64,000 bases of DNA from Pseudomonadales bacterium (GCA_020632255.1 JACKFX010000002.1:82905-146904); one strand, 5' to 3'. Counted from the first letter of the stretch, positions 18,188-61,739 are shown. Numbers and translations are program-made. The notes: a model not told the origin generated them from the letters alone.

Positions 18188-18371
18188 GCTTCCTTTTCTA
18201 AGTGCACACCTGCTACGCGTGCATTTTACTGTTAGGTACAAAGACAAGACAGACGAAAAAATCGCCCTTCAAATCCAATCCTACTATATCAGAATGGAAC
18301 TTGCAAGGATGAAACTCGACGGATATATCAATAAATACACACTACTTACACATCTGGGAAAACAAATATAC

Positions 18372-20928: not shown

Positions 20929-22671
20929 TTATTGTGCTGTAGCATCATCACAAAGCTTCATCACAAGAGATCGCTCTGTTTCGTCGAACTGTGTGCTGTC
21001 ATAAACTCGAAGTGCCAGCTGGTCTTGTGGCTGGTATCGGGTCAGGTGATAATATTCTTTTACTGGCTTGATGCCATTAGGAAACATTTCCCCATCAGAT
21101 GCCGCCGAAATTAGTAAGCTATTTTCTTTTTTTAACATGCAGGGAGCGACATTTGATTTGACTGTAGTAATAGTAATATTTTCAACCCTTCCTAACCCAT
21201 TTATGTTACCGTGCTCACGTGTCTCAGCTAATGACTGAATATGTACTGGATCAATTAAGTTGTACCAAGCAAAAAAGATGTAGACCTGAGTGTCTGTTTC
21301 AGACATAAACACATTGTCATAGCCATGTTGTTTTACATAAATGTCTCTGGCTGCTTCCGAATAGAATCCATGCCAATACGGCTCTGACTGCTCGGGAAAG
21401 AGCAAGTAAAAGTCACGCAGATACAGTGCGACGTTAAACACCATGCCGAAAACTATTCCCAGCCAAATTGCCCAAGAAAAAACCGGATGAAGTTTCTTAG
21501 CAATCGCCTCATACAAAAAAACGATTCCTACTACAGTAAAATAAACCAAGGCAGGAACCATAATCAGCGCACGATTTCCGTTTGGAGCTCCGTTCGTCAA
21601 GCTTGATGGAATTGGAGAAACTAATAACCATGCCAAGAAAAACCACCAGGTTGAATCTTTCTTTCCAAACATAAGTCCCAAAAATAAAAAGGGGATAAAG
21701 AAATACAACAATGAACCATGCTCATAAAATGCATAAGCCGGACTTTGATTAGAGTGTGGGAATAAAAACCCAGGACTAAAGTGGCTTAAGTATTGAGTGA
21801 AAAACAGATCAAAAATGTAAATCCCTTTATTATGAAATACTCTTATCAATGGCAACCCAGTCACCACACTTCTATAAATACCCTTCTCAACCTGAGCATG
21901 AGCAACGTCTTTATTCCAAAAAAACACTGTGCGAGCTCGATCACCAGCGGAACTCCCGAATGTTGCAACAAATATTAACAAAACTGATAATCCGCCCGCT
22001 AAAAAAACTGCAACATTTTCTTGAAAGTACCTTTTAACATTTCCTGAGTAGGTAAAAAAACACTCATGCACCACAATCAATAGTGGTACAAAAAAGCGTG
22101 AGGCATTATAGGTGTACATTGCTAACAAAAAGAAAAATATACCTATTAATCTTTTTTTATACGCATGTATTTCTTGAAAAAAAGCTAAACCAATCAACAA
22201 AAAACTCAACGAAACCATAGGGTCAAATGCGATCCGACTGTAATGCATGTGCCATGGTGTAATAGCCATTATCACCGCCGCCAAAGCACCACTAAAGCTT
22301 GTAGTGTGCTTTTTGACTATATAATAAAACGCTACAACTCCTAAAGATGCTAATAGTACTACTGGCAATCGAGCAAAAAATTCATTGACTGAGAACAGTG
22401 TAAAAAATGGAATCATTAAATAACTTAATAGAGCTGGCTTAAAATCTCCAAAGGCTTCCAAAAAAATAGGCATCGAAACCCCCCACTCATCTTTACCTGT
22501 TTTAAGAATTGAATACGCGTTGTAGGCATAAGACGCCTCATCCCACTGAAATCCCCAAGGAATATGTCCAAGCATAAAAACTCTCAAAACAAAAGCAAAC
22601 AAAAAAATCCCAGCAGGGAGGGTCAATAGATTAAACAATTTCTTAGCCATAATTCTGATAGTAACACTCAA
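20929..22671 (-). CDS. GT-C glycosyltransferase, family 39/83-like (PMT/ArnT-type). The start is probably MAKK at 22650.
   Basis: 580 aa, more than 10 TM. The N-terminal loop carries the DE motif (FQWDEASYAY) typical of PMT/ArnT GT-C enzymes. Its N-terminal 110 aa are duplicated at 28313..28792. Confidence 0.7.
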   Translation of the reverse strand: MSVTIRIMAKKLFNLLTLPAGIFLFAFVLRVFMLGHIPWGFQWDEASYAYNAYSILKTGKDEWGVSMPIFLEAFGDFKPALLSYLMIPFFTLFSVNEFFARLPVVLLASLGVVAFYYIVKKHTTSFSGALAAVIMAITPWHMHYSRIAFDPMVSLSFLLIGLAFFQEIHAYKKRLIGIFFFLLAMYTYNASRFFVPLLIVVHECFFTYSGNVKRYFQENVAVFLAGGLSVLLIFVATFGSSAGDRARTVFFWNKDVAHAQVEKGIYRSVVTGLPLIRVFHNKGIYIFDLFFTQYLSHFSPGFLFPHSNQSPAYAFYEHGSLLYFFIPFLFLGLMFGKKDSTWWFFLAWLLVSPIPSSLTNGAPNGNRALIMVPALVYFTVVGIVFLYEAIAKKLHPVFSWAIWLGIVFGMVFNVALYLRDFYLLFPEQSEPYWHGFYSEAARDIYVKQHGYDNVFMSETDTQVYIFFAWYNLIDPVHIQSLAETREHGNINGLGRVENITITTVKSNVAPCMLKKENSLLISAASDGEMFPNGIKPVKEYYHLTRYQPQDQLALRVYDSTQFDETERSLVMKLCDDATAQ

Positions 22672-36282: not shown

Positions 36283-38526
36283 ATGTTTCGTAAACTTCTC
36301 ATCCCGTTTGTTATCATTGCTTCTATCTTTGTTAGCTATGTCTCATTATTTCATAACGACTCCGTTGAAAACGTTGCTCTCATTTCACAACTCTTTGGCA
36401 CACATGGCATCTGGATCTTAAACCTGCTGTTAGTAGTGATGGTTATCCCTATTTCACTTTCACTTATGGAAATCATTACCGGTGAGTTTGGCCTAGAACG
36501 CTTCAAACGAATTGCTGCTATCAGTATTGGTATGACTACGCTTAGTTTTGCTGCTTTGCAATTTATCGGAGCAATTGCAACGTCTTCTGCAGAAGGTGCC
36601 ACTGTCGTAGTAGAAGTCTTTCAACAAATTGCCCACTTTGCCACTCATGGTGAACTAGAACAATACGGCCTGGTGGGAATGCTCACGTCAGATGCTTCCG
36701 GTCCTTGGAACTCCAGCATCTTCCCACTGCTCATTATGATTATATGGTTAATCCGTCGAAAAACAGTTGGCATCGAAACAAAGCAACTTCATGTTCCGAT
36801 GATTTTTCAGTGGATTTTGTACGCTCAACAATTTTTCTTCGGTCTTGATTTACAGTACACGCTACTGGAAATTATCTTGATGGGTATTACTGGATCACTG
36901 TTTGTCTGGGGAATGATCAACTTCCTCGTTTCTATGTTTAGAGAAGCAGAGCAAGCAGAAGCCAAAGCAGCAGCAGAAATACCTGAAAAAGAAGAAGCCA
37001 CTAAGAAACAAAACTTCTATAGCCGTATGATTCATGGTATTTCCCACCTAACTTTTGAAGTCCTAACTTTCAATCCCTTTAACAAAAAAGTAGATACTGC
37101 AGATGAAAAAATTCAAAAAAAACGTGGTGGCTACGGAAACATCGGTCGCGGTTACGTTACCTTGAACGGGCTACAATTAACGCTAGCCATGACCGTTGCC
37201 ATGTTTGCCCTTGTCAGTGCAACTCAATTTCTTGCAGTCCAACTACGCATGAGTGATGCCGAAGCTGCGCTCTTTGGTACGGCTGGTCTTACGAGCGCTC
37301 CAGAAGCATTTGTTGCTCTTGCTGTCGGTCCCTATATTAACGCACTCCTCCTCGTAGGGAGCAACATCATTGATGGTTGGATGTCTGCTCTAGGACAAAC
37401 TGTCCTCTTAGGATATGCCGAAATCGCGAGTGGTGGTCATATTACCGCAATACCCTTGCATCCAGCTATTCGCTATCTCACTTTTCTCTCATGGACACAG
37501 GGCATGCTCGTTTGGGCTGCATTAACACTCTATGCTCACACCATTCACACTACTTTAAATAAAAAAATCATTTCCATTACCTCAATAGTTTTGCTGTCAG
37601 TTGCCATCTTGTACTACTTTGGTGGGGCATGGTTTAGTGCTCAAGCCTTGGGATATGGCGCTGAGTATGCTCAAGAGAGCTTTATCGTCAAATCGATTGG
37701 TAGCATTATTAACCTATTAACAATGATAAAAGCACAACAAATCGTATTGGTACTCAACATTATTGGCCTGGGAGCATTGGCTTTCTGGTGGAGTGGAATT
37801 CTGGAAAAACTCTCCTCACTTCTTCAAACAGAAGAGGACCAACGCATCTCTGGAGCAATCACTGAATTACATGGAAAGATTTCAAAGCATTTAGCACGAG
37901 AAAATCAACAAGTTATCATCGTTCTTGATACGAGTTCTGACATGAACGAGAAAACATTTTTTTTCAAAAACAAATGGATAGATCTTGTCTTCCGTCAAGC
38001 TGCTGCCTTTGGCCTAATTCTTGATGATGATGGCCATATTCCGGTCTATACGACCAGTGATGGTGCAGTTAAAAAGATCAAACACTTGCTCACCCAAAAA
38101 AATGCGGATACCTTTATTGAAAAATTCGTTGGCAGAAACACCGCAGGAAAAGTGAGCTACACTCCTGTCATTTCTGAAATATTTGCCGAATACAAAGATA
38201 CCCTCACAACTGAGCATGACCCAGTGCTCGTACTCTTTATCACTGCTGGAGGTGGCACCGATGCTGCAGAAGCAAACAAGCTTTTCACAAAAATGGAGTC
38301 CTATCCCATTTTTGTGCAGTTTATTGAAATTCACGGTGACAAACCACATAAAAATGCTCAAGTAGTCACCGGAATTGCGAATAAACCTGGAAAAATCATC
38401 GATAACTCTGGTATTTCTTCACTACCATTGTTTAGGTTAACCGACGCAAGTCAAATTGTCGAAGAAGTCCTCAACGAATACCCAGGCTACCTTGAAAAGG
38501 CTCAAAAAGCAGGAATTCTCGACTAA
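36283..38526 (+). CDS. Polytopic membrane protein with a C-terminal von Willebrand factor A-like domain
   Basis: 747 aa. About 12 hydrophobic helices in the first 480 aa. C-terminal IIVLDTSSDM (MIDAS-like), VLFITAGGGTD and IFVQFIEIHGD follow the vWA beta-strand pattern. Confidence 0.55.
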   Translation: MFRKLLIPFVIIASIFVSYVSLFHNDSVENVALISQLFGTHGIWILNLLLVVMVIPISLSLMEIITGEFGLERFKRIAAISIGMTTLSFAALQFIGAIATSSAEGATVVVEVFQQIAHFATHGELEQYGLVGMLTSDASGPWNSSIFPLLIMIIWLIRRKTVGIETKQLHVPMIFQWILYAQQFFFGLDLQYTLLEIILMGITGSLFVWGMINFLVSMFREAEQAEAKAAAEIPEKEEATKKQNFYSRMIHGISHLTFEVLTFNPFNKKVDTADEKIQKKRGGYGNIGRGYVTLNGLQLTLAMTVAMFALVSATQFLAVQLRMSDAEAALFGTAGLTSAPEAFVALAVGPYINALLLVGSNIIDGWMSALGQTVLLGYAEIASGGHITAIPLHPAIRYLTFLSWTQGMLVWAALTLYAHTIHTTLNKKIISITSIVLLSVAILYYFGGAWFSAQALGYGAEYAQESFIVKSIGSIINLLTMIKAQQIVLVLNIIGLGALAFWWSGILEKLSSLLQTEEDQRISGAITELHGKISKHLARENQQVIIVLDTSSDMNEKTFFFKNKWIDLVFRQAAAFGLILDDDGHIPVYTTSDGAVKKIKHLLTQKNADTFIEKFVGRNTAGKVSYTPVISEIFAEYKDTLTTEHDPVLVLFITAGGGTDAAEANKLFTKMESYPIFVQFIEIHGDKPHKNAQVVTGIANKPGKIIDNSGISSLPLFRLTDASQIVEEVLNEYPGYLEKAQKAGILD

Positions 38527-38852: not shown

Positions 38853-39527
38853 CTACAAAACCTTCGTAACCGCACTCAAAATTGTTTTCCGATCCACGAT
38901 ATGCATTCCAGTTTTTTGTGCAGTACGAATGACATCTTTTTCTGATGGTTCAAAAACAAATGCTTCGTCAGCTTCTTTCAGCATGGCTATATCACCAGAA
39001 CTATCACCAAAAACCAGCAGCTTACTGTCATTTGATTTGAACTTCTCAACCTCGGTGACTTTATCTGCTTGGTTTACTAAACGATCTATTGTGCCAGTAT
39101 ACACACCGCCATCGACTTCCAGAGTTGATCCTACTGCAGTCACACCCAAGACCTGTGCACATGCCTGGACTATTGGATCTAAAGACGCAGAAACAACTAC
39201 AATAGTGTAGTTGTGTTTTTTGAGCAACGATATAAGTTGCGGTACATACTCAAAAAAGTGTTGTTTTGAAAAAAAGTTATTCTGCCATTGCTCAACTTCA
39301 CTCACTCGTTTGCCTTTCAATACTTCTGCAGATAGTTTCATGGTCATCTCAGATGCTCTATTGTGAGGAATTACCTTACTGCTATATCCAAGAACTAAAA
39401 GAATTGCCTTCACCAGTAGGATTCCAGATATTTTTCGATTTGGTATTAAGTAACCAAACAAAAAGGTAGACATCGATACCCCGTCAAAAAGTGTTTTGTC
39501 TAGATCAAATACGGCAACTTTTTTCAT
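38853..39527 (-). CDS. HAD-superfamily hydrolase (subfamily IB, phosphoserine phosphatase-like)
   Basis: 224 aa. Motif I FDLDKTL, a Ser/Thr motif, a conserved Lys, and motif IV FGDSSGDIAML. Confidence 0.7.
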   Translation of the reverse strand: MKKVAVFDLDKTLFDGVSMSTFLFGYLIPNRKISGILLVKAILLVLGYSSKVIPHNRASEMTMKLSAEVLKGKRVSEVEQWQNNFFSKQHFFEYVPQLISLLKKHNYTIVVVSASLDPIVQACAQVLGVTAVGSTLEVDGGVYTGTIDRLVNQADKVTEVEKFKSNDSKLLVFGDSSGDIAMLKEADEAFVFEPSEKDVIRTAQKTGMHIVDRKTILSAVTKVL

Positions 39528-45113: not shown

Positions 45114-45599
45114 ATGGATACCGAACAAAGCACGTCACCACAAAAAGCTCGGTCACGACTGAAGAACAACCGAGACAACATGCCTGTTGTCCACTCTCTC
45201 CATAAGCGAACAAAGAATGCAGTCACTGTAGAGCACCCACTTCTCAAGAAATATCTAAAGTTTTCTCCCCTGCTAATTGTAGCAATTCTACATCTTGGGC
45301 TTCTTTCATATGTTGTTAGAACTGTTGCACCTGAGACATGGCAACACTTTCTCATTCCAAATTCCTACCTGCCAATGCTCCTACTGCTGATAGCAACTGT
45401 TTTTTGGTTTTCTAGCTATCTTTTTCTAAACACTGCCCGTGGCATACGTTTCTCACTTTTTGCTGGCATATTTTTTTTCCTCAAAGTACAGAGTGTCATT
45501 CTTAGCAGCAGCTTTGTAGTAGTAGTGATAGGTTTATTTGTTTTGAGCGAAATATGCATTTATTTTTTAACTATGATTGGGCACTCGAAAAAACAGTAA
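45114..45599 (+). CDS. Small polytopic membrane protein; hypothetical
   Basis: 161 aa from MDTEQSTS with about 4 hydrophobic helices. Fills the gap between rmuC and metG. The upstream 300 nt of the track ORF is antisense to rmuC and was discarded. Confidence 0.35.
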   Translation: MDTEQSTSPQKARSRLKNNRDNMPVVHSLHKRTKNAVTVEHPLLKKYLKFSPLLIVAILHLGLLSYVVRTVAPETWQHFLIPNSYLPMLLLLIATVFWFSSYLFLNTARGIRFSLFAGIFFFLKVQSVILSSSFVVVVIGLFVLSEICIYFLTMIGHSKKQ

Positions 45600-45625
45600 T
45601 CTTGCAGTATAATACCAGGCGTACT

Positions 45626-47050
45626 ATGAAAGAAAAATACTACATCACCACCACCCTTCCCTATGTTAACGCAGAACCACATATTGGTTTTGCTCTCGAG
45701 ATTGTGGCTGCAGATATGATGGCTCGCTTTCATAGAGACATCCTCAACGAGGAAGTTATCTTTAATACTGGAACTGACGAACACGGACAAAAAATTCACC
45801 AAAAAGCTGAGGAGGCTGGTGCCGATACACAGGTCTATGTCGACGAGTATGCAGAAAAATTTTCTGGACTTCGTGATTTATTGCGTATCGACTACACTCA
45901 TTTTATTAGAACAACAAATCCTGAGCACAAAAAAGCTGCACAAGAATTTTGGAAGCGTTGTGAAGCTAAAGGCGACATCTATAAAAAAATGTACAAGCTC
46001 TCGTACTGTATTGGCTGTGAGCTTGAAAAACAGAGTTCAGATCTTGATGAAAATGGACGCTGCCCACTTCACCCAAACAAAGATCTGGAAATCCGTGAAG
46101 AAGAAAACTACTTCTTCGCGTTCTCAAAGTACCAAGATGCACTCTTAGCACACTATGCTACGCATCCTGATTTCGTAGAACCAGAAAGTAAAATGAAAGA
46201 AATCACCGCATTCGTAGCTAGAGGTCTCAAAGACTTTAGTATCTCTCGCCTCAGCAGCAAAATGCCATGGGGGATACCTGTTCCGGGTGACGAAGAGCAT
46301 GTTATGTATGTTTGGTTTGATGCACTGGTTAACTACATCTCAACCCTAGGCTGGCCAAACGACACCCAACATTTTGAAGCATATTGGCCAGGAGTTCAAC
46401 TTGCTGGAAAAGATAACCTACGTCAACAAGCAGCCATGTGGCAGGCAATGCTTGCCTCAGCTGAACTCCCATTTAGCAAAAAAATTCTCATAAATGGATT
46501 TATTAGTGTAGATGGGCAAAAAATGAGCAAATCACTAGGAAATGTGATCTCTCCATCAGAGATGGTGAACCGCTATGGTAGCGAAGCCACTCGTTTCTTA
46601 CTCATGGAACTCGGCCCATTTGGCACAGATATGGATGTAACCTGGGAAAAACTTGACACTACGTACACAGCCCTTCTCTCGAATGGTATCGGAAACGTCT
46701 GTTCACGAGTAGCTAAGATGTGCGAGAAGAATGGTTCAGAGTTTATTGTCAATGAAATCGAAGTTCCCCAAGAGTATTCCACTGCCCTCTCCAAGTACGA
46801 CATCTCTAGAGCTATCAGAATCATTACAGAGTATGTCAGTGATATTGATCTCTATCTGAGTGAAAACCAACCATGGACCAAAACAGGTGATGACCAAACA
46901 GCACTCCTCCAAACGTCGGTCGAGAGAATTCGCACGTTAGCCGCCATGCTCGTTCCAGTCATGCCAGGAACCGCACAGAGTATTAGTGATCTATATACAC
47001 AAACTCACATCGTTGCTTTAGATCCACTTTTCCCTCGCCTACCAAAATAG
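45626..47050 (+). CDS. metG: Methionyl-tRNA synthetase, short form
   Basis: Class I aaRS HIGH-type motif (PYVNAEPHIGFALE) and KMSKS. CxxC knuckle CIGCELEK. Start MKEKYY. Confidence 0.9.
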   Translation: MKEKYYITTTLPYVNAEPHIGFALEIVAADMMARFHRDILNEEVIFNTGTDEHGQKIHQKAEEAGADTQVYVDEYAEKFSGLRDLLRIDYTHFIRTTNPEHKKAAQEFWKRCEAKGDIYKKMYKLSYCIGCELEKQSSDLDENGRCPLHPNKDLEIREEENYFFAFSKYQDALLAHYATHPDFVEPESKMKEITAFVARGLKDFSISRLSSKMPWGIPVPGDEEHVMYVWFDALVNYISTLGWPNDTQHFEAYWPGVQLAGKDNLRQQAAMWQAMLASAELPFSKKILINGFISVDGQKMSKSLGNVISPSEMVNRYGSEATRFLLMELGPFGTDMDVTWEKLDTTYTALLSNGIGNVCSRVAKMCEKNGSEFIVNEIEVPQEYSTALSKYDISRAIRIITEYVSDIDLYLSENQPWTKTGDDQTALLQTSVERIRTLAAMLVPVMPGTAQSISDLYTQTHIVALDPLFPRLPK

Positions 47051-47053
47051 ATC

Positions 47054-47932
47054 ATGCCCATTTTTGACACACACTGCCACTATAACCTTGACCCAATCCT
47101 TGGTGAATGGCAAACACAGTGGCACCTCGCACAAAAAAATGACATAACTCACACCACTATAGTTGGCACTGACATCCAAACAAGTAAACAAGCACTTTCT
47201 ATCGCAAAAAACTCCAAAAACCTGTTTGCAAGTATTGGATACCATCCAGGAACATTTGAAGAACACGCACCAGACTTTGTTGAAGGTCAAACTGTCTATT
47301 CAGAGCGAATTAATACTGAACTGAAGCTTATCAAAAATGAATTGCTAGAAATGGTTTCTACAGGTCAACCAATCGCGATTGGTGAAATTGGTCTCGATTA
47401 CTACCGACTACGTTCAAAAGGACTCAAACGAGAAGTCCTGAGTGATTTGCAAAAAAAAGCTTTCAAGCTACAACTTGAAATCGCGGCTGCTCACAACCTT
47501 CCAGTCATTTTGCATGTTCGCGACCAAGCAGAACGAACACATTCTAATGCCTACCTGGAAGTACTCGAGATCATCAAACAAACCACTCCTAAAAAGTTTG
47601 TGCTCCACTGCGTTTCTGGACCGCTTTCATACATTACAGCAGCTCTTGAGCTTGGTGCGTATATTGGATTTGACGGCAACATTACGTATCCTCAGGCAAA
47701 ACACATCCGTGAAATCTTTTCAATCACTCCAACAGATAAAATTCTCCTCGAAACTGACGCTCCGTATCTTGCCCCAGAACTCCATCGTGGTAAAATTTGT
47801 GAACCTTGGATGATTACGGAAACAGCCAAGTACCTCGAAGGAGAACTCAAAACTGATCTTGCTCAGATATACCATAACAGCTTTTCTTTTTTCGATATCA
47901 ATAATAATGCTAGAATAAAACAGTATGGGTAA
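47054..47932 (+). CDS. tatD: TatD-family metal-dependent hydrolase/DNase
   Basis: 292 aa. N-terminal FDTHCH, GEIGLDY, HVRD and FDG, the TatD signature set. Confidence 0.85.
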   Translation: MPIFDTHCHYNLDPILGEWQTQWHLAQKNDITHTTIVGTDIQTSKQALSIAKNSKNLFASIGYHPGTFEEHAPDFVEGQTVYSERINTELKLIKNELLEMVSTGQPIAIGEIGLDYYRLRSKGLKREVLSDLQKKAFKLQLEIAAAHNLPVILHVRDQAERTHSNAYLEVLEIIKQTTPKKFVLHCVSGPLSYITAALELGAYIGFDGNITYPQAKHIREIFSITPTDKILLETDAPYLAPELHRGKICEPWMITETAKYLEGELKTDLAQIYHNSFSFFDINNNARIKQYG

Positions 47933-49430
47933 CTTTTTACGTAGATATATCACCAGACATCCCGTTCGCTCCCAACGTTTTTTAGAAATTCTTCCAGGAG
48001 TTGTTTCTTGGTCTTTAATTCTTTTTCCGTTCTGGGGTTCTTTAATTATCCCAGAATTCGTTGCCTACTTTGTAATCACCTTTGCCGTCTACTGGCTCTA
48101 CCGCTCGCTGAGCATGTCGGTACTTGCGGTGCTCGGACACTTCAGAATCAAAGCCGCAACCAACTTTGACTGGATTGCTGATCTTAAAAAAAACTTCCCC
48201 AAAAACTGGAATAGTATTCACCATATTATTGTGATCCCCACCTACAAAGAGCCTCTGGATACCCTTGAACGCACTCTTGATGGTCTCTCCGGACAATCAT
48301 ACCCCCTCAAAAATCTTCACATTATGCTTTCTTTTGAAGAACGCGAAGGCAAAGAGGCGGATGAAAAAGCTACCTATCTTGTGAAAAAGTATGGCAAGGT
48401 CTTTGGAAATCTCTGGACAACCAAACATCCTGACATTGAAGGTGAAGTAAAAGGCAAATCTTCAAATACTGCTTGGGGCGCTCGAATCGCAAAAAAAGAG
48501 CTTATCGACAAACAGGGTCTCGACCTTAAGAAAGTCACCATCAGCAGCGAAGATGCTGATGCACTCTTCCACAAAGACTACTTTGCCAATGTTGCCTTTG
48601 AGTTCTTAACAACCGACGATCCGTTTAATAAAATTTGGCAGGGCGCTGTTGTGTTCTACAACAATATTTGGAAAGTACCTCCTCCAATTCGTGTCTTAGC
48701 ATCAATGTTCTCAGTGATTCAAATTCACATCTTGATGCGTAGCGATCGCCTCATTAACTTCTCAACCTACACAACTTCACTCAAACATGTTGTTGATATT
48801 GATTTTTGGGATACAAACGTCATCCCCGAAGACTATCGGCTCTTCTTCAAGTCATATTTTACCAAAAAAGGAGATTTTGAAGTGAAACCGATTTTCTTAC
48901 CAATTTTTTCTGACGCAGCAGAATCAAACACTTGGTGGGAAACCTTTGTTAATCAGTATGAACAACTCAAGCGCTGGGCATGGGGCGTAAGCGATGATGC
49001 GTATATTATTAAACAATACATCATGGCTACCGAAATTCCCTTCTGGGAAAAAACTGTCCGTGTCTCCAAAACCATCGAAGATCACTTCTTGTGGCCAGTT
49101 AACTGGTTTATTGTCACCATAGCTGCTTTTCTTCCACCACTATTGAACCCAGCATTTAACCGCACTACTATAGGAAAAACACTTCCTCAAGTGACTTCAT
49201 CACTATTAACACTCTCTCTCATCTCCATGGTGATTATCTTTATTATTGATGCTGTTAATAGACCACCACGGCCAAACCGCCGAAATGCATTCTCTTACAT
49301 CATGCAACCACTCGAATTCTTCTTACTTCCAATTATCGGCTTCTTCTTCTCTGCATTGCCTGGAATCGACGCGCACACCCGCCTGATGCTGGGAAAATAC
49401 ATTGAGTATCGTGTAACAGAAAAAGTCTAA
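47925..49430 (+). CDS. Processive family-2 glycosyltransferase (cellulose/chitin/hyaluronan synthase-like), membrane-integrated
   Basis: 501 aa. GT-A motifs IVIPTYKEP, EDAD and the QxxRW motif QLKRWAWG. TM helices at both ends. Confidence 0.65.
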   Translation: MGNFLRRYITRHPVRSQRFLEILPGVVSWSLILFPFWGSLIIPEFVAYFVITFAVYWLYRSLSMSVLAVLGHFRIKAATNFDWIADLKKNFPKNWNSIHHIIVIPTYKEPLDTLERTLDGLSGQSYPLKNLHIMLSFEEREGKEADEKATYLVKKYGKVFGNLWTTKHPDIEGEVKGKSSNTAWGARIAKKELIDKQGLDLKKVTISSEDADALFHKDYFANVAFEFLTTDDPFNKIWQGAVVFYNNIWKVPPPIRVLASMFSVIQIHILMRSDRLINFSTYTTSLKHVVDIDFWDTNVIPEDYRLFFKSYFTKKGDFEVKPIFLPIFSDAAESNTWWETFVNQYEQLKRWAWGVSDDAYIIKQYIMATEIPFWEKTVRVSKTIEDHFLWPVNWFIVTIAAFLPPLLNPAFNRTTIGKTLPQVTSSLLTLSLISMVIIFIIDAVNRPPRPNRRNAFSYIMQPLEFFLLPIIGFFFSALPGIDAHTRLMLGKYIEYRVTEKV

Positions 49431-49511
49431 ACTCTCAATGCTCTCTCTCCTCTAGATATCCGCCCTCAAAATAAGGTATAGTGTTCCTAGTAACATCTAC
49501 ATGGTAAAACT

Positions 49512-51128
49512 GTGAAACAATTTCTCAAACACATCATTAAAATCGATAGACTACTTGATCAACAATGGCCATTATTTGTAGCCCTTGTCTTACTTTTTGT
49601 GCTCAGAGTTCCAAACCTAGTCGAACCCTATTGGTATGGTGACGAAGGCATTTACCTAACAATTGGACAGTCAATGAACAAAGGTGTGCTTCTGTACCAA
49701 GAAATTATTGACCACAAAACTCCTATTATTTACTTCTTAGCTCAGACTCATACCCAACTTAATTTTCGATTACTATTAATTGGCTGGATGTTGGTAACAA
49801 CCGCGGCATTCTATTACTTCGCTCAAAAACTTTTTGCAGGTAAGCGACTACCAGCATTCTTAGCAACTCTAGTCTTTGTAGTAGCAACGACACTTCCTTC
49901 CTTTGAAGGGAATATTCCAAATGGAGAGCTTTTTGTCATGGGCTTTGTACTTATGGGCTTGCTCATTTTAAGTAGAACAGAGTATGTTGCACAATTGCTT
50001 GAATCAAAGAAAGTGCTTACAACTCATTCATGGTTTGCTTATTTGACTTCTGGAGTGTTTCTTTCACTCGGAGTACTAACTAAAGTACCTGCCATTTTTG
50101 ACATTGCTGCAGCACTTGGATTTGGCTACTTTGCCACCACCAATGCCTGTTTAGCAACAAAAAAGAAAAGGGCTGGAGAACTCATTAAAAGAGTTAGCGC
50201 CAACCTTCCAGTATGGATTGTCATGGGAGTAGGTATTTTGATTCCTATTGTAATTTCTATTGTTTACTTCGTTTCAAAAGGAGCTGGCCAAGCATATCTT
50301 GATTTTGGCTTACTCTATAATTTTAGATATGCCGGTAGCTGGCAACTTCCATTTACCAACCCACTCTTACTCTTTTTCTTTACACTCCAAGGAAAAGTTG
50401 TGGCCATGGGACTACTCACTCTGGTGCTTACACTCTTGAGGAAATATGTCACCCCTGCCTATCAGTTCATACTCTTTTGGTTTGGTCTGTCATTATTTGC
50501 CAGTCTGCTCTCAAACAGACCTTACCCACACTATTACCTCCAAATAGTACCTGCATTTTCATTAGTAGTGGCCGGCACTCTCTCCGAAGGCTATAGCATT
50601 CTCACTTCTCTAAAGAAAAGGGCTACCAATGTTCTCGGCCCCCTGCTCGGACTGGGTCTGTTAGGAATATTTTTTGCCATTCTCGTACTTTTAGATGTAC
50701 GCCCCTATCCGAGTTTGGGCTACTACACGTCATTCATGCAACTAGCTCAAGGAAAAATAAGTGTAGAAGAGTACAACCAGCGTTTTGATGTGCACATGCG
50801 CGACAACTACAAGGCAGTCGATGTAATGAAAGTATGTCCCGACGATCATCTCTTTATTTGGGGAACAAACCCTATGCTGTATGCACTTTCAGATAGAATT
50901 CCAACTGGCAGATTCACGGTTTCATTCCACATTAAAGACTTTGACGCATACGACGAAACCTACAATGATCTTGTCGAAGATGCTCCAAGCTTTATAGTTG
51001 TAATGAACAGTGAAACCAGTGACTTCCCAGAATTCTATGAATATCTCAGTGAAAACTATCGGCAAACCCCAGTTGAGTTTGACAATTTTACTCTGTGGAA
51101 TAGAATGGACTGCAAGGTTACGGAGTAA
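49512..51128 (+). CDS. GT-C fold glycosyltransferase (ArnT/PMT-like); GTG start
   Basis: 538 aa, more than 10 TM. First periplasmic loop carries WYGDEGIY (DE motif). Confidence 0.55.
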   Translation: MKQFLKHIIKIDRLLDQQWPLFVALVLLFVLRVPNLVEPYWYGDEGIYLTIGQSMNKGVLLYQEIIDHKTPIIYFLAQTHTQLNFRLLLIGWMLVTTAAFYYFAQKLFAGKRLPAFLATLVFVVATTLPSFEGNIPNGELFVMGFVLMGLLILSRTEYVAQLLESKKVLTTHSWFAYLTSGVFLSLGVLTKVPAIFDIAAALGFGYFATTNACLATKKKRAGELIKRVSANLPVWIVMGVGILIPIVISIVYFVSKGAGQAYLDFGLLYNFRYAGSWQLPFTNPLLLFFFTLQGKVVAMGLLTLVLTLLRKYVTPAYQFILFWFGLSLFASLLSNRPYPHYYLQIVPAFSLVVAGTLSEGYSILTSLKKRATNVLGPLLGLGLLGIFFAILVLLDVRPYPSLGYYTSFMQLAQGKISVEEYNQRFDVHMRDNYKAVDVMKVCPDDHLFIWGTNPMLYALSDRIPTGRFTVSFHIKDFDAYDETYNDLVEDAPSFIVVMNSETSDFPEFYEYLSENYRQTPVEFDNFTLWNRMDCKVTE

Positions 51129-51135
51129 GAATACT

Positions 51136-51498
51136 ATGCCAATTTCTAAGACATCGCGATTTCAACAGTTGGTCGCATCAGAAATTCGCTTTCCGCTTGC
51201 TACTATTCAAGTAATTAGTGTGCTCTCGATCATTATAGCCACACTTGGATACTTCATACTTCCACCACAAATTCCGCTTTTCTACTCACTCGCACAACCA
51301 ACGCAACAACTTGTCCCAAAGCCCTTTATCGGTATCCTTCCGGGGATTGCGGTGCTATTTGGCACCCTCAATAGCATCCTTTGTATAGAAATGAGAAGGT
51401 ATGATCAGCTCCTGCTCAAACTCTTTGCTTGGTTTGCAGTTGTTATTTCTTTGGTGGTACTTTTTTCTTTACTAAGAATTATCTATATCTTACTGTAA
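51136..51498 (+). CDS. Small membrane protein; hypothetical
   Basis: 120 aa from MPISKTSRF. GGAG 10 nt upstream. 3 TM. Confidence 0.4.
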   Translation: MPISKTSRFQQLVASEIRFPLATIQVISVLSIIIATLGYFILPPQIPLFYSLAQPTQQLVPKPFIGILPGIAVLFGTLNSILCIEMRRYDQLLLKLFAWFAVVISLVVLFSLLRIIYILL

Positions 51499-51499
51499 C

Positions 51500-52555
51500 A
51501 TGTGGGCACTTTTCTTTTCATTTACAATCGCTCTCCTTATTGCTCCCTTATTAATTGCACTGTACACCAACTATGGCTGGGTAGATGATCCTGCAACTGA
51601 CACACATGTAAAAAAGACTCACTCAAAACCAGTTCCGAGAGGTGGAGGACTCGTCATCTTTGGATCTTTCTTGGTCTCAGCAATGTTCCTCTTAGAAATA
51701 GACAAGTATTTAATTGCAATTTGCGTTGCAGCCCTACTCTTAACTATTGTTGGGGTCCTGGACGATATTTTCGATATCGATCCAAAAATTCGGCTCATCA
51801 CTGGCTTGACAGCTGCTGGAATCGTTGTGGCGGCTGGTATTGGCATTGCCTATGTAAGTAATCCGTTTGGTGATGGCGTCTTCCACCTTAACCAACCTCA
51901 AATTGCCTTTCACCTTTTTGGAGAACTCCATACTATTTGGGTACTTGCAGACATATTTGCACTCATTTTTATACTCTGGAACATGAATAGTGTTAACTGG
52001 TCAAAAGGGGTTGATGGCCAACTACCAAGCTTTGTTTCGGTGGCGATGATTGTGATTGCCTTACTTTCAGGGCGGTATGCTGCAGATCCAACACTTTTTG
52101 ACACAACAACTTTTTCGTATATTATTGCTGGTTCATTTTTAGGACTGCTAGTCTGGAACTGGTACCCGCAAAGAATGATGCCTGGTTATGGTGCAGGCTC
52201 GCTGGCAGGCTTTTTCTTAGGGGTCGCAGCTATAATAAGTGGTGCCAAAGTTGCCACAGTAGTAATTGTACTTGGTGTTCCCACAGCAGATGCACTCTTT
52301 ACCATCGCCCGCAGACTAGCACGGGGAAAATCTCCACTTTGGGGTGACAGAGGACATCTGCATCATATATTACTTGACTACTATCATCTAAGCCGAAAGC
52401 ACATTTCACTTATCTATGTTGGAACAACACTAGGTTTAGGACTTGCCGCCCTCTATTTGAATACTGTCGGAAAAATGATTACAATGGCAGTAGTTTGTAC
52501 AGTGGTCTTTTTTGTGCACATTCATGCACGAAAAATTCAGAAAGCAAAACGGTAA
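51500..52555 (+). CDS. Polyprenyl-phosphate N-acetylhexosamine-1-phosphate transferase (GT4, WecA/MraY family)
   Basis: 351 aa, about 10 TM. Cytoplasmic loop motifs PVPRGGG, GVLDDIFDI and a later His-rich region typical of the MraY/WecA superfamily. Confidence 0.7.
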   Translation: MWALFFSFTIALLIAPLLIALYTNYGWVDDPATDTHVKKTHSKPVPRGGGLVIFGSFLVSAMFLLEIDKYLIAICVAALLLTIVGVLDDIFDIDPKIRLITGLTAAGIVVAAGIGIAYVSNPFGDGVFHLNQPQIAFHLFGELHTIWVLADIFALIFILWNMNSVNWSKGVDGQLPSFVSVAMIVIALLSGRYAADPTLFDTTTFSYIIAGSFLGLLVWNWYPQRMMPGYGAGSLAGFFLGVAAIISGAKVATVVIVLGVPTADALFTIARRLARGKSPLWGDRGHLHHILLDYYHLSRKHISLIYVGTTLGLGLAALYLNTVGKMITMAVVCTVVFFVHIHARKIQKAKR

Positions 52556-52559
52556 CTCT

Positions 52560-53513
52560 ATGAACCTTTTCGTCGGTATTATCAAGACTGCACGCCCACA
52601 ACAATGGCTCAAGAATGTAGCACTCTATGCAGCTTTAGTTTTTTCTGGATTTTTCTTTTATGATCCAGTTGATGCCCCACCCTATTTTGTAACGGTCACC
52701 TATGCCTTTGTGGTATTTTGTGTGCTCACTTCAAGCATCTACTTTATTAATGACATTTTTGACTACGAAGCAGATAAAAAGCATCCTTTCAAAAGTAAGC
52801 GTCCAATTCCGAGTGGTGTTTTATCACGCAAACTTGCAATGGTACTAGCAGCTATTGGATTACTAACAACACTCATTCTATCCTTTCAGTTCTCCGCATT
52901 TTTCCAACTCTTAATTTTGGGATACGCTCTTTTACAAATTTGGTATTCTAAACAACTTAAGCATATTCCGATCCTTGATATTAGCACTATCGCTACTGGT
53001 TTCTTGATTAGAATTTATGCTGGTGCAGTGGTGGTCAACTTACATATGAGCGTTTGGTTTTTACTCACCGTTATCTCTGCATCACTCTTCCTGGCAGTTG
53101 GAAAACGTCAGAGTGAACGTACTCTTTTGCAAGGAAATGAAGATATTTCTGTCGGCGAAACTAGAAAAATTCTTACCCGCTACACAGAACGTTTACTGGA
53201 CCAGTACACCAGTATGTTTGGTATGGCTACATGGCTTACCTATGCACTGTTCGCCTTTCAAAATGAAATAAGTCCACCTGAACGAGTGTCAGCTGATATC
53301 TATACCTACCTTCCAAAAGCCTTACACAGTCAAAAATTATTAATGTTGACTGTGCCGTTAGTAATCTTCGGAGTCATGCGTTACTTACAACTCATTTATG
53401 AAAGTAATAAAGGTGAATCTCCAGAAAAAGTTCTCCTTCAAGATAAACCGCTCAAATATACCGTTGGCCTTTTTGGTGCACTAGTCATGATCATTATCTA
53501 CGTACTGACTTAG
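52560..53513 (+). CDS. UbiA-family prenyl-phosphate pentosyltransferase, decaprenyl-phosphate phosphoribosyltransferase-like
   Basis: N-terminal ARPQQWLKN. Asp-rich motif NDIFDYEADKKHPFKSKRPIPSG. Nine TM. The pattern matches the DPPR-synthase branch of UbiA as I recall it. Confidence 0.6.
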   Translation: MNLFVGIIKTARPQQWLKNVALYAALVFSGFFFYDPVDAPPYFVTVTYAFVVFCVLTSSIYFINDIFDYEADKKHPFKSKRPIPSGVLSRKLAMVLAAIGLLTTLILSFQFSAFFQLLILGYALLQIWYSKQLKHIPILDISTIATGFLIRIYAGAVVVNLHMSVWFLLTVISASLFLAVGKRQSERTLLQGNEDISVGETRKILTRYTERLLDQYTSMFGMATWLTYALFAFQNEISPPERVSADIYTYLPKALHSQKLLMLTVPLVIFGVMRYLQLIYESNKGESPEKVLLQDKPLKYTVGLFGALVMIIIYVLT

Positions 53514-53525
53514 AATTGAGATGTG

Positions 53526-54926
53526 ATGGATACTCAGGTTTTTAAAAAACAGTACAAAACTCTTTTGCTAGTCATACTTTTTTTTGCGTTCTTCACTCGT
53601 GTGTATCGCCTTCACGTACCCGAGCGCTACATTTTTGATGAGGTGTACCACTCTGTAACTGCAAAACTCATTGCCCACAATGATCCACGTGCTTTTGAGT
53701 GGTGGAACCCAGCACCTGAACCTGATACAGCTGTCGATTGGTTACATCCTCCACTAGCAAAGTATACACAGGCAGCAAGTATGCTGATATTTGGAGAGAA
53801 CTCATTTGGTTGGAGAATTAGTTCTGCTCTCTTTGGTGTAGGAGTACTGTATCTTATTTCATTATTATCTTTACAACTTACAAAAAACCATGCTATTTCA
53901 CTCTTGGCAACCCTACTTGCTAGCCTTGATGGTTTGTTGTTAGTCATGTCTAGAATTGCTATGAATGATATTCACGTTACGTTTGCGATTTTGTTAACAG
54001 TAATTCTCTATCTCAAAACTAAGCCATTTGAAGAAAAGCGAAAACCTCTTGAATCACTAAAATGGTACCTGTTCACCGGCATCAGCGCTGGTCTTGCTAT
54101 GGGAACTAAATGGTCCGGTGTTTTTGTACTGGGAATACTGTATGTCTACGAGCTGCTCTCAATGCTTGAAGTTGTTGGAAACATATTACATGCCAAGAAC
54201 AAAAAAACAATACAGACTCACCTCAAACAGCTGATCCAACATGGAGCTATTGTTTTGTGCTGTTTTGTAATTCTCCCATTAACTGTCTACCTTTTGAGTT
54301 ATGCACAAATGTTTTTGCAAGGCAAAGACTTAAATCATCTCAGAGAACTTCATAAACAAATCTGGTGGTACCAAAGCAACTTAACTGCGACACACACCTA
54401 TCAATCTACTCCACTCGAATGGATTATTAACAAGAGACCAGTTTGGTTCCATGTGTCATATGGTTCAGGAAAGCGAGCAGACATCTATGCACATGGCAAC
54501 TCAATCCTTTTGTGGTCTGGGTTAGTCACAGTTGTTTTGACTTCTCTAAGCATCCTCAAAAGACTACTAAATAGCACAGATGCAAAAAAGCCACTTGAAA
54601 CAATTACACGGATAATACGAACACCACTCACCTACCTATTGATGGGATACTTTGCCACCTGGATCGTGTGGATTCGATCGCCTCGCATCATGTTCTTTTA
54701 TCACTACACTCCTGCAATTCCATTTTTAGTGATACTACTAGCCTACGGCTTATACAAACTCACCATGCTGCCGGAAAAATATCAACCACTGGCTCAAGCC
54801 ACTGCCCTTACCACAGTTAGTCTAGCAGCGCTCTATTTTATAGTTTTTTTTCCACACTGGACCGCACTCCCAATGCCAGCTCACTTCGTCAACTCAGTTT
54901 ACTTTATGTTTGAATCTTGGAAATAA
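53526..54926 (+). CDS. Dolichyl-phosphate-mannose protein mannosyltransferase-like GT-C (GT39/PMT family)
   Basis: DE motif YIFDEVYH in loop 1. More than 10 TM. PMT-like C-terminal region. Confidence 0.7.
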   Translation: MDTQVFKKQYKTLLLVILFFAFFTRVYRLHVPERYIFDEVYHSVTAKLIAHNDPRAFEWWNPAPEPDTAVDWLHPPLAKYTQAASMLIFGENSFGWRISSALFGVGVLYLISLLSLQLTKNHAISLLATLLASLDGLLLVMSRIAMNDIHVTFAILLTVILYLKTKPFEEKRKPLESLKWYLFTGISAGLAMGTKWSGVFVLGILYVYELLSMLEVVGNILHAKNKKTIQTHLKQLIQHGAIVLCCFVILPLTVYLLSYAQMFLQGKDLNHLRELHKQIWWYQSNLTATHTYQSTPLEWIINKRPVWFHVSYGSGKRADIYAHGNSILLWSGLVTVVLTSLSILKRLLNSTDAKKPLETITRIIRTPLTYLLMGYFATWIVWIRSPRIMFFYHYTPAIPFLVILLAYGLYKLTMLPEKYQPLAQATALTTVSLAALYFIVFFPHWTALPMPAHFVNSVYFMFESWK

Positions 54927-59962: not shown

Positions 59963-60379
59963 ATGTCAACACAAACTCAAAATCCAGAGCAGCTAAGAAT
60001 TTTACTTGCAGAAGATAATCCAGATTGGGTTGACACTATTACAGCCTATGCTAAAGAATCTGGGGCAGTTGTAGTTGCTATTGCAACCACATTTTCTGAG
60101 GCGTTAGAAGAAATTAAACACGTTAAAGATAAACATATCGATCTAGTTATCCTCGGGGGCAGTCTGGATAAGCAGTTAAAACATACTAATTCAGATCTTC
60201 TACTCTTAATCCTTGCGCTCAATGAAGTTGATGCAACAATTCCTACCATTGCACTATCTGGAAATGATCGTGGTACAGAGCGCGCTACGATAAATGTTGG
60301 AAAAACTCTCACATTTGCTCAAGACTTCACATCAGCACTCAATCAAATAATGCTGGGAACTTCTACTACAGAGAACTAA
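59963..60379 (+). CDS. Receiver-like (CheY fold) single-domain protein lacking the phospho-acceptor Asp
   Basis: 138 aa. Beta1 ILLAEDN acidic pair is present. The expected DLVILD position reads DLVILGG, so the D57 equivalent is Gly. Ser and Lys are conserved further on. Confidence 0.45.
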   Translation: MSTQTQNPEQLRILLAEDNPDWVDTITAYAKESGAVVVAIATTFSEALEEIKHVKDKHIDLVILGGSLDKQLKHTNSDLLLLILALNEVDATIPTIALSGNDRGTERATINVGKTLTFAQDFTSALNQIMLGTSTTEN

Positions 60380-61739
60380 CCATCGTACTCACCAAAAAGT
60401 ACGCAAAGAAAGCAAATGCGAGCGCCATCATGGCAACGCGTAATATGCCTGCATGTAGTCGTTTTCGTAATGCTCCCTTATTGAGAAAATAGATAAACAC
60501 AAACGACATCATCATAGCCGCGGCATTGAGGACTGCGGAAAGTGTCAGTAATACTCGTGGTTCTTGAATACCAAAGAGATAAATCACTACACCTAATCCA
60601 ATCTGTGCCCACAAAGCCACATAAAAGCCAAGGGACATATTTACTTTCTTACCCTTCTTATAACCAAGCAACAACACATTTTCTGAAATAATGCGCGCTG
60701 AAGACTCTAGTACACCTAACTGGGTTGAAAACAACATCAATGCGGCAATCAACAAGAAAAACATTGAGACAGTGCTTCCCATTACCCGGCTAATAACATC
60801 AGCTTCCCCATACAAAAAGCTCAAACCCGAAGACACCTCCGAGCCATACACGGTGGCTCGGGCCAAAACTGACATCACCACAATGGTTATCAGTCCCAAA
60901 GACCAAAACACAATTGCATGCTCCATGCATACGAGCCGCCACCACTGCTGCCAACGGTTCCAATTTTTTGTAGTGTCTGCAAAATCAAAACCATCAATAC
61001 TTGCTGGTTTACTTTCTTTCGAAAACAAGGCTCCAACTTTGGCAGCAGACTTACCCATACCAAAGCCTTTCTCTTTTATGTAGTACGATTGAGCCAAATT
61101 TAGATTTCCCCCCGCACCGGCATACGCAAATGCACCTAAGAAACTGGCAATTGAGACACCGCTTGGGAATAACCACCACCCATCACCGTGACCAGCAAGT
61201 CCCCAGATCATCTCTTGCCAATGCTCTGCACGAGCTAACCAAAGTGCTATACCAAACAGCAGGGGTAATCCAATCAGAATAACCCCCTTCTGAAAACGTT
61301 CCATCGTGGTGTACAACGATGAGCCAACAGACAAAATCACACCAGTGAAAACAAGTAAAAATATTGCAACCATTTTTTCTGGTAAGAACGGAAATAAATG
61401 GGTTAATAACTCCGATGCAGCTGACGAAAATCCAGGTATAGACCATGGAATAAAAGTCGAAATGATGTACCAAAGAGTAATGAGTACACTCATTCGGCGA
61501 AAGCCAAGAAACACACTTTCTCCTTTAGCCAATGTGTAACGCATCACCTCAGTATTTAAGACATACTGCAAAGAAACACCTAGCAATGCCCCCCAGAGTA
61601 ACCCCAATCCATAGTTTGCAGCCAAATATGGCCAAAGAATTAATTCTCCACTTCCAAGAGCTAAACCTAGCAAAATAAAAGAAGGGCCAATTGTTTTGGC
61701 AAGTGACGGAGGTTTAGAGAGTGATTTTCCTTGCTTCAT
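60366..61739 (-). CDS. NRAMP-related membrane transporter lacking the canonical DPGN motif
   Basis: 457 aa, 11-12 TM. N-terminal GPSFILLGLALGSGELILWPYLAANYGLGLLW aligns to the Nramp GP.F...DPGN...G..LLW segment, but LGSGE stands where DPGN is expected. Confidence 0.45.
   Translation of the reverse strand: MKQGKSLSKPPSLAKTIGPSFILLGLALGSGELILWPYLAANYGLGLLWGALLGVSLQYVLNTEVMRYTLAKGESVFLGFRRMSVLITLWYIISTFIPWSIPGFSSAASELLTHLFPFLPEKMVAIFLLVFTGVILSVGSSLYTTMERFQKGVILIGLPLLFGIALWLARAEHWQEMIWGLAGHGDGWWLFPSGVSIASFLGAFAYAGAGGNLNLAQSYYIKEKGFGMGKSAAKVGALFSKESKPASIDGFDFADTTKNWNRWQQWWRLVCMEHAIVFWSLGLITIVVMSVLARATVYGSEVSSGLSFLYGEADVISRVMGSTVSMFFLLIAALMLFSTQLGVLESSARIISENVLLLGYKKGKKVNMSLGFYVALWAQIGLGVVIYLFGIQEPRVLLTLSAVLNAAAMMMSFVFIYFLNKGALRKRLHAGILRVAMMALAFAFFAYFLVSTMVSSL

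Follow-up and report, generated by a model that had tools for sequence, protein, structure and literature searches.

A putative envelope-glycan operon of Patescibacteria with a phosphoribosyl-lipid synthase and a split, non-canonical phospho-sugar transferase

What kind of surface polymer would be made by genes that set a UbiA-fold phosphoribosyltransferase beside a polyprenyl-phosphate N-acetylhexosamine-1-phosphate transferase (PNPT), a synthase-type family 2 glycosyltransferase (GT2) and two glycosyltransferases of the GT-C fold? A 64,000-nucleotide stretch of DNA (GCA_020632255.1, JACKFX010000002.1:82905-146904; hereafter the window), filed under the name Pseudomonadales bacterium, carries such a group of six genes, g1 to g6. 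We place it in the Patescibacteria, or Candidate Phyla Radiation (CPR), whose envelope chemistry is essentially unknown and whose surface mediates attachment to host cells. We give a somewhat better than even chance to the reading that one branch of these bacteria conserves the locus as an operon for envelope-glycan biosynthesis, working by a mechanism, proposed below, in which g5 would make a lipid-linked pentose. In the open reading frame (ORF) listing of the window the six genes are:

47925-49430, plus strand: g1, 501 residues, predicted synthase-type GT2
49512-51128, plus strand: g2, 538 residues, predicted GT-C fold glycosyltransferase
51136-51498, plus strand: g3, 120 residues from the start chosen by gene callers on public contigs (frame open from 51010), small membrane protein
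51500-52555, plus strand: g4, 351 residues, PNPT-family protein
52560-53513, plus strand: g5, 317 residues from the called start (frame open from 52512), predicted phosphoribosyltransferase of the UbiA fold
53526-54926, plus strand: g6, 466 residues, GTG start (ORF start 53523/53526), predicted PMT-family GT-C glycosyltransferase

The genes share one strand from 47925 to 54926 and are separated, from g1 to g6, by 81, 7, 1, 4 and 12 nucleotides. An initial annotation of this DNA had described six co-directional, tightly spaced genes and quoted diagnostic motifs, and the window translations contain every one of them: QLKRW in g1, WYGDEGIY in g2, ARPQQW...NDIFDYEAD in g5 and YIFDEVYH in g6. Its family-level calls for all six products also hold, and its idea of the general purpose of the locus is largely right; corrections concern the nature of the 'WecA', the choice of core genes and the parallel with arabinogalactan. 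All six products are membrane proteins, and five are recognisable glycan-assembly enzymes. Four public Logan contigs, called independently, carry the identical six genes, and the same contig recurs in several Logan assemblies of sequencing runs. GC content is uniform at ~0.41, and promoter and terminator scans of the locus gave nothing better than shuffled sequence. Upstream, a TatD gene shares 8 nucleotides with the start of g1, so that the glycan genes may be co-transcribed with the housekeeping pair MetRS-TatD; at the 3' end, a UvrD/PDDEXK helicase gene converges on the operon.

The host of the locus is a Microgenomates/Pacebacteria-type Patescibacterium, confirming the earlier impression of a CPR-like cell. 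Many records of metagenome-assembled genomes with CPR-specific synteny (among loci L006-L084 of the set described below) are labelled 'Pseudomonadales bacterium', 'Vitreimonas sp.' or 'Limisphaerales bacterium'. Those taxon labels look wrong, the contigs being evidently Patescibacteria; the g2 protein is 100% identical to an NCBI protein from a record labelled 'Pseudomonadales bacterium', and other records of that label bear isolate names of the HK-STAS-PATE series and are taken here as mislabelled Patescibacteria.

By homology down to its active-site residues, g5 is almost certainly a polyprenyl-phosphate 5-phosphoribosyltransferase of the UbiA fold, that is, a member of the PPPRS/DPPR-synthase family (DPPR, decaprenylphosphoryl-5-phosphoribose). 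It passes the NCBIfam equivalog model for DPPR synthase, NF008978, with 218.7 bits against a cutoff of 207, scores 71 bits on PF01040 (UbiA), and stays under the cutoffs of the sister models NF008977 (204 against 234) and NF008976 (171 against 474); on the generic UbiA model NF006088 it reaches 134 bits, far under the cutoff of 351. On named models for prenyltransferases of the geranylgeranylglyceryl phosphate (GGGP)/prenyl, heme-O, ubiquinone and chlorophyll types its scores do not exceed 61 bits. On those scores we rejected a quinone, heme or ether-lipid prenyltransferase, and the initial assignment of the protein to the DPPR-synthase type, outside the quinone and heme clades, is upheld. Homologs already bear the name 'decaprenyl-phosphate phosphoribosyltransferase' from the NCBI pipeline.

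The match extends to ligand binding. g5 matches Mycobacterium tuberculosis Rv3806c (PDB 8j8j) at E 1e-36, and the residues that hold Mg2+, ribose, 5-phosphate and pyrophosphate in Rv3806c are R22, K28, Y70, N73, D77, K87, R90, Q135, Y138, K143, Y157 and K208 (PMC10994848). Each has a counterpart in g5 in the 8j8j alignment, with K208 kept and Y157 replaced by phenylalanine, a substitution also seen in some mycobacteria. The equivalents of R22 through K143 in that list are invariant in 20 CPR homologs; the counterparts of K208 and Y157 (F) are not. Among the genes called across the 64-kb window there is no DprE1-type (FAD_binding_4/ALO), short-chain dehydrogenase/reductase (SDR) or GtrB-type GT2 domain, in agreement with the earlier remark that DprE1/E2 are missing from the window, and g5 is therefore the only visible source there of a polyprenyl-monophosphate sugar donor. 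The GT-C-type genes of the window number three: g2, g6 and a gene at 20929-22671.

While g5 would provide a sugar donor, g1 most likely builds a chain. The window's g1 protein has no match in Pfam, even at E 10, or in NCBIfam, and neither its single sequence nor its family profile finds a match among all PDB chains; one ortholog (P0140) just attains the PF13632 threshold, with 27.7 bits against 27. Its AlphaFold2 (AF2) model (pLDDT 81, pTM 0.81) opens with two N-terminal helices, followed by a GT-A domain and, at the C-terminus, a helix bundle, and its top Foldseek matches in the PDB are the hyaluronan synthases of Chlorella virus and Xenopus, PcManGT and BcsA (E 3e-10 to 1e-7, probability 1.0). 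The protein bears the D, DxD, ED and QxxRWAxG signature of synthase-type GT2 enzymes, and the segments E209-D210-A-D212, P301-E-D-Y-R305 and Q347-L-x-R350-W351-A-W-G do not vary across 30 orthologs. On the model and these motifs, g1 is predicted to be a membrane-integrated GT2 synthase of the cellulose/hyaluronan-synthase type. It resembles class I hyaluronan synthases (HAS), BcsA and chitin synthases in architecture, fold (Foldseek E 3e-10) and motifs; it differs from them in having no sequence match to solved structures, in the borderline Pfam signal of its ortholog, and in its fixed genomic association with a PNPT and a PPPRS.

The third component is a PNPT that departs from the known ones. 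g4 scores 66.4 bits on PF00953 (cutoff 27) and falls below the cutoffs of the WecA model TIGR02380 (60.7 bits against 326) and the MraY model TIGR00445 (48.2 bits against 192). For an alignment we took WecA and MraY of E. coli MG1655. Like WecA, TagO and MraY, g4 has the PF00953 fold and the DD motif (D90/D91), and it keeps D159, the second aspartate of N..N..DG.DG, and the H-[IL]-H-H motif in its WecA-type form H-L-H-H (GDRGHLHH). Unlike them, it has lysine (K169) at the position of WecA D156 and tyrosine (Y230) at that of WecA D217, the aspartate of the MGD motif common to WecA and MraY, and both changes are kept in orthologs. D156 and D159 are active-site residues of WecA, and the D156C substitution in CBU0533, the WecA homolog of Coxiella burnetii, abolishes complementation (PMC5843353). 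MraY was rejected as an identity for g4 by 48.2 bits against 192 and a WecA-like GDRGHLHH where MraY has HHH, in line with the WecA-type label of the initial annotation; orthologous WecA was ruled out by 60.7 bits against 326 together with the loss of D156 and D217. What survives of the proposed 'WecA-type initiator' is thus a PNPT with an HLHH motif, one that is non-canonical and has a partner, g3, to which it is fused elsewhere.

That partner is a small protein with three transmembrane (TM) segments, poorly conserved (median 34% identity), with no family match in Pfam (E up to 10) or NCBIfam and, by hhalign, no similarity to the GtrA, EamA and PAP2 proteins that adjoin PPPRS genes in other taxa. 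The g3 family does align to the N-terminal ~120 residues of PNPT relatives 470-520 residues long (hhalign probability 99.35%, E 6e-21, 99 columns). Because this N-terminal extension is homologous to g3, g3 and g4 are two parts of one unit that is fused elsewhere, with g3 a predicted accessory module of the PNPT, needed by it or joined to it. Since g4 both lacks two conserved aspartates and works with g3, its substrate is uncertain.

We searched g4 exhaustively against representatives at 50% identity, which yielded 177 clusters (50% identity) meeting the threshold of E <= 1e-30. Its nearer relatives carry the variant motifs WS[KSN]G.DGQ and [PYW]G[YF]G; the canonical D/D or D/E forms occur only among more distant matches, mostly at 37% identity or less, and transitional relatives that retain the MGD aspartate exist. 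Motif state tracks UbiA adjacency: the K/Y, S/Y and N/F forms adjoin a UbiA gene and the single D/T form examined (P0408) does not. The fused and variant forms make up a sizeable PNPT subfamily in which D156 and D217 give way to K/S/N and Y/F (loci L093, L097 and L098; P0371-P0457), and this aspartate-deficient subfamily is apparently undescribed.

How far does this combination of genes extend? A scan for the g5 pattern in one genome per GTDB species found 190 relatives, of which 80 were taken with 10-kb flanks; all 80 loci come from Patescibacteria-type records (Pacebacteria, Woesebacteria and Microgenomates), and the per-gene counts leave aside loci whose flanks are too short. Dozens of Patescibacteria species genomes repeat the order g1-g2-g3-g4-g5, an arrangement far beyond chance. 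g5, the query, is present in all 80 loci (median identity to the window protein 64%), and g4 lies next to it in 77 of 77 (58%). g1 is found in 55 of 60 loci and is the best-conserved gene of the cluster, with a median of 72% against 59% for MetRS, itself present in 50 of 55. The remaining counts are 65 of 69 for g2 (45%), 58 of 75 for g3 (34%) and 52 of 58 for TatD (43%), and g6 follows g5 in 42 of 69, about 60% (median 47%). The MetRS-TatD pair directly 5' of g1 (45554-47932 in the window) is kept even in lineages whose cluster proteins share just 35-50% identity.

In distant relatives (35-52% identity) the GT2, the PNPT, with or without a separate small gene, and the UbiA gene still stand together while the flanks change, and the PNPT and UbiA genes overlap. 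The locus of P0366 (44% identity to g4) reads MetRS-TatD-GT2-small-PNPT-UbiA with no GT-C gene adjoining, and that of P0385 (36%) is arranged in the same way, again without one. In loci L093-L095 the GT2 is homologous to g1 (41-52% identity) and the UbiA protein to g5 (42-47%), with the PPPRS motifs kept. Because deeper lineages keep only g1-g3-g4-g5, these genes are the conserved core, and g2 and g6 are lineage-specific accessories. The two GT-C transferases listed in the initial annotation are therefore both present and both outside the core.

The flanks of the core vary from lineage to lineage. Loci that lack g6 have after g5 a GT-C-like membrane protein (PF10131, DUF2298 or GT87-like), a GalU-type nucleotidyltransferase, or, on the opposite strand, a GtrB-type GT2 and a PMT_2 protein. 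In locus L054, which lacks g1 and g6, the opposite strand after g5 carries, by Pfam scan, a GtrB-type GT2, a GT2-GtrA fusion and a PMT_2 GT-C, and also, by sequence inspection only, a GDP-mannose 4,6-dehydratase-like protein; L076, L081 and L084, loci of some lineages that likewise lack g1 and g6, have ORFs whose sizes match this set. We read the L054-type flank as a putative second, hexose-type lipid-donor system beside the PPPRS.

Other neighbours occur farther out. The loci of P0371 and P0386, PNPT forms of 483-518 residues, read GT2-PNPT-UbiA, and a short way 3' of these genes a Wzy_C family protein is encoded. This protein, which has TPR repeats (L093, 4584-6392; L097, 11962-13847), adjoins the UbiA gene in L093 and is two genes off in L097. 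The Wzy_C family, which includes O-antigen ligases and polymerases, acts on polyprenyl-pyrophosphate-linked glycans, and its presence therefore fits a priming role for the PNPT. A PEGA/SH3 surface-type protein adjoins or lies close 3' of the UbiA gene in L094 (10642-11529) and L095 (9958-10851). It is possible that the Wzy_C or PEGA/SH3 proteins are transferases for the glycan, or acceptors of it.

The accessory g2 has no match in Pfam (E up to 10), NCBIfam or the sequences of the PDB, whether searched as a single sequence or as a profile. Its AF2 model (pLDDT 91.5) has ArnT (5f15, 5ezm), AglB, yeast STT3, AftA and ALG12 as top Foldseek matches, with EmbB also among the fold matches, and it is nearer in fold to ArnT than to the Aft or Emb enzymes. 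Following TM1, the segment P39-Y-W-Y-G-D44-E45 shows no change among 37 homologs, and an extracytoplasmic alpha/beta domain occupies about residues 400-538 at the C-terminus. As modelled, g2 is a GT-C fold glycosyltransferase of an undescribed family, and its profile-profile link to g6 is weak (hhalign probability 84%, E 8e-6). g6 itself scores 94.4 bits on PF02366 and 80.6 on PF16192, matches yeast Pmt1 in the PDB (E 1e-12), keeps F-D-E-V-Y-H in loop 1 across 50 orthologs and has no MIR domain; from these matches it is predicted to be a PMT-family GT-C glycosyltransferase. An actinobacterial Pmt ortholog was ruled out by 87.9 bits against 800 on NF058602. The window's third GT-C-like membrane protein (20929-22671, minus strand, 580 residues) scores 25.9 bits on PMT_2, just under the cutoff of 26.1; far from the operon, it could be another user of a polyprenyl-phosphate-sugar donor.

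How might these parts work together? In the mechanism we propose, g5 would transfer 5-phosphoribose from phosphoribosyl pyrophosphate (PRPP) to polyprenyl phosphate at the cytoplasmic face, giving polyprenyl-phosphate-ribose-5-phosphate. The 5-phosphate would be removed by an enzyme encoded outside the operon. The lipid would then stay polyprenyl-phosphate-ribofuranose, because no epimerase is in sight, and would be flipped across the membrane, outside which a glycan or surface proteins may receive the pentofuranose (ribofuranose) from g2 and g6. For g1 the likeliest role is to draw on a nucleotide sugar, polymerise it into a beta-linked backbone and export this; g3 and g4, as a two-part PNPT, most likely load a phospho-sugar onto polyprenyl phosphate as primer or anchor. 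The tight spacing of the genes, their synteny over 80 species genomes and the retention of the core in distant relatives support this reading of the locus.

A candidate for the missing 5-phosphatase lies some 8 kb upstream:

38853-39527, minus strand: HAD-IB phosphatase candidate, 8.4 kb from the operon, 99 bits on TIGR01490 against a cutoff of 98.3

TIGR01490 is also the best subfamily model for the HAD-IB protein encoded directly 3' of the PPPRS gene in Lactococcus (plasmid NZ_PP589792.1; 79.4 bits, under cutoff), and the two HAD-IB proteins match each other at BLASTP E 3e-7 with 22% identity.

Among known systems the closest is the PPPRS/flippase/GT-C pentofuranose pathway, not arabinogalactan synthesis proper. 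Experiments by Kelly et al. (PNAS 2024) showed that ribofuranose is added to glycans outside the cytoplasm by a PPPRS, a flippase and a GT-C acting together, and that where an epimerase is present, an epimer of ribofuranose is added instead; they call the arrangement widespread, with Citrobacter youngae O1/O2 as the prototype, and do not mention CPR (PMC11127046). This experimental precedent supports the reading proposed here. The two systems share a UbiA-fold PPPRS with NDxxDxxxD and R..E motifs, an adjoining GT-C, and PRPP as the point of entry for the pentose. They differ in that the CPR locus has no HAD or PAP2 phosphatase, MATE or GtrA flippase or epimerase, fused or adjoining; its GT-Cs have no sequence relation to those beside PPPRS genes in other taxa and stand outside the conserved core; and what constantly accompanies its PPPRS is a synthase-type GT2 together with a non-canonical PNPT. 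On annotated plasmid records of other taxa, PPPRS loci have a phosphatase and sometimes a small transporter adjoining: HAD-IB and GtrA in Lactococcus, EamA and PAP2 in Marivivens, and the order glf-glfT2-PAP2-PPPRS-aftB in Rhodococcus. In the literature on CPR with DPPR synthase, arabinofuranose, UbiA, DprE1, envelope, glycosyltransferase or teichoic acid we found no description of the cluster.

Several observations weigh against the mechanism. Unlike the loci of Lactococcus, Marivivens and Rhodococcus, the operon adjoins neither a phosphatase nor a flippase (GtrA, EamA or MATE) nor an epimerase, and no phosphatase lies within it or is fused to g5. By hhalign, g2 and g6 bear no sequence relation to the GT-Cs that adjoin PPPRS genes in those three taxa, and in deeper lineages such as those of P0366 and P0385 the GT-C genes are absent beside the core. 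The lack of both WecA D156 and the MGD aspartate in g4 makes the standard reaction with UDP-N-acetylhexosamine (UDP-HexNAc) doubtful, and the processivity and product of g1 are guesses. Finally, gene order by itself counts for little as evidence, since MetRS and TatD, whose functions surely have nothing to do with those of the cluster, share its synteny.

The alternative that fares best, unlikely as we consider it, is that the locus serves protein glycosylation: polyprenyl-phosphate-pentofuranose derived from g5 would be used by g6, and by g2, to place O-glycans on pilins, S-layer or other surface proteins. It has a precedent in TfpW, a GT-C that puts arabinofuranose on the pilin of Pseudomonas aeruginosa (cited in PMC11127046), and it would agree with the true PMT-family membership of g6, DE motif included, and with the PEGA/SH3 surface-type proteins beside the core in distant lineages. 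However, about 40% of loci, and the deeper lineages too, do without g6, whereas the best-conserved gene is that of the polymerase-like GT2, g1, and the operon encodes no acceptor protein. Transfer to proteins is in any case compatible with the envelope-glycan mechanism and does not exclude it.

A second alternative would ask more of g3 and g4. Here the pair would act on polyprenyl-phosphate-ribose-5-phosphate or another non-nucleotide substrate, and the resulting ribose-phosphate lipid would be elongated by g1. The strict adjacency of g4 and g5 (all 77 loci), the overlap of their genes in distant lineages and the replacement of two aspartates by conserved Lys/Ser/Asn and Tyr/Phe in UbiA-adjoining relatives would all suit such a pairing, as would an operon without a phosphatase, from which the 5-phosphate may be kept. 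On the other side, g4 retains DD, D159 and HLHH, which are typical of PNPTs that use nucleotide sugars, and its transitional relatives have the MGD aspartate; eukaryotic GPT likewise lacks the first DGxDG aspartate; and we know of no precedent for a PNPT reaction on a phosphoribosyl lipid. We consider this chemistry improbable. We hold equally little expectation that the GT2-(g3)PNPT-PPPRS core is an ancient module, common to this branch of the Patescibacteria and its deeper relatives, for an undescribed envelope polymer containing ribofuranose or ribose phosphate, and that the aspartate-deficient PNPT in it catalyses a reaction new to its family, for example by using the phosphoribosyl lipid of g5 in place of plain polyprenyl phosphate and UDP-HexNAc.

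Less probable still is an arabinan of the kind made by Mycobacteriales, with DprE1/DprE2-type epimerases encoded elsewhere in the genome supplying polyprenyl-phosphate-arabinofuranose from which the GT-Cs would build the polymer. g5 is homologous to Rv3806c, and AftA and EmbB are among the fold matches of g2, although that fold is nearer to ArnT. The mycobacterial locus (glf-glfT2-Rv3807c-Rv3806c-aftB, seen in Rhodococcus and Tsukamurella) has in common with ours this enzyme, its PRPP/Mg ligands, and a GT2 and a GT-C beside it. Yet g1 is membrane-embedded and HAS/cellulose-synthase-like, with no homology to GlfT2 by hhalign; the CPR window has no called glf, PAP2 phosphatase or DprE1/E2; and the PNPT stands inside the operon and is non-canonical. 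No FAD_binding_4/ALO or SDR gene was called in the window or among the ORFs sampled 3' of g5 in related loci. Some ORFs 3' of g5 in loci without g6 are DprE1/DprE2-like in size, and their products are in fact GT2, GtrA-fused GT2 and GT-C-like proteins; a Tsukamurella 'FAD-binding oxidoreductase' beside aftB, considered as DprE1, was dropped as D-2-hydroxyglutarate-dehydrogenase-like. The parallel with arabinogalactan drawn in the initial annotation is loose, there being no GlfT2 homology, epimerase or PAP2 phosphatase.

Mere coincidence, in which six genes of separate pathways stay together only because gene order is frozen in the reduced genomes of CPR, could draw on the equal synteny of MetRS and TatD and on the uninformative promoter and terminator scans, but we give it very little credence against six membrane proteins of which five are glycan-assembly enzymes, the fusion of g3 and g4 elsewhere, the tight or overlapping spacing, and a core that stays intact while its flanks change.

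Elsewhere in the window, an apparent carotenoid operon lies on this Patescibacteria contig at 28832-32976 (minus strand). It encodes a polyprenyl diphosphate synthase, a lycopene-cyclase-domain protein (TIGR03462), a phytoene/squalene-synthase family protein and a CrtI-family desaturase (TIGR02734, 422 bits against a cutoff of 238); pigment synthesis seems unexpected in such reduced genomes. An ORF of 2001 residues (called as 1978) at 12242-18247 (minus strand), with a Beta_helix match and weak or faint matches to fn3 and Big-type domains, probably encodes a giant surface or adhesin protein. Other genes of the window are:

8257-8979, minus strand: RmlA-type glucose-1-phosphate thymidylyltransferase
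20399-20881, plus strand: TspO family protein
36283-38526, plus strand: vWA-TerF-like protein
60366-61739, minus strand: Nramp metal transporter

What would the operon mean for these bacteria? A conserved core that includes a phosphoribosyl-lipid synthase assigned with high confidence predicts that a pentofuranose, most simply ribofuranose, is a constitutive component of the envelope in this branch of the Patescibacteria. The locus would carry the PPPRS/GT-C pentofuranose pathway into a deep bacterial lineage, where it has other partners. Among these, a PNPT subfamily without two conserved aspartates is of interest in its own right, as PNPTs such as MraY and WecA are antibiotic targets. More generally, the operon offers a handle on what uncultured, ultrasmall cells put on their surface.

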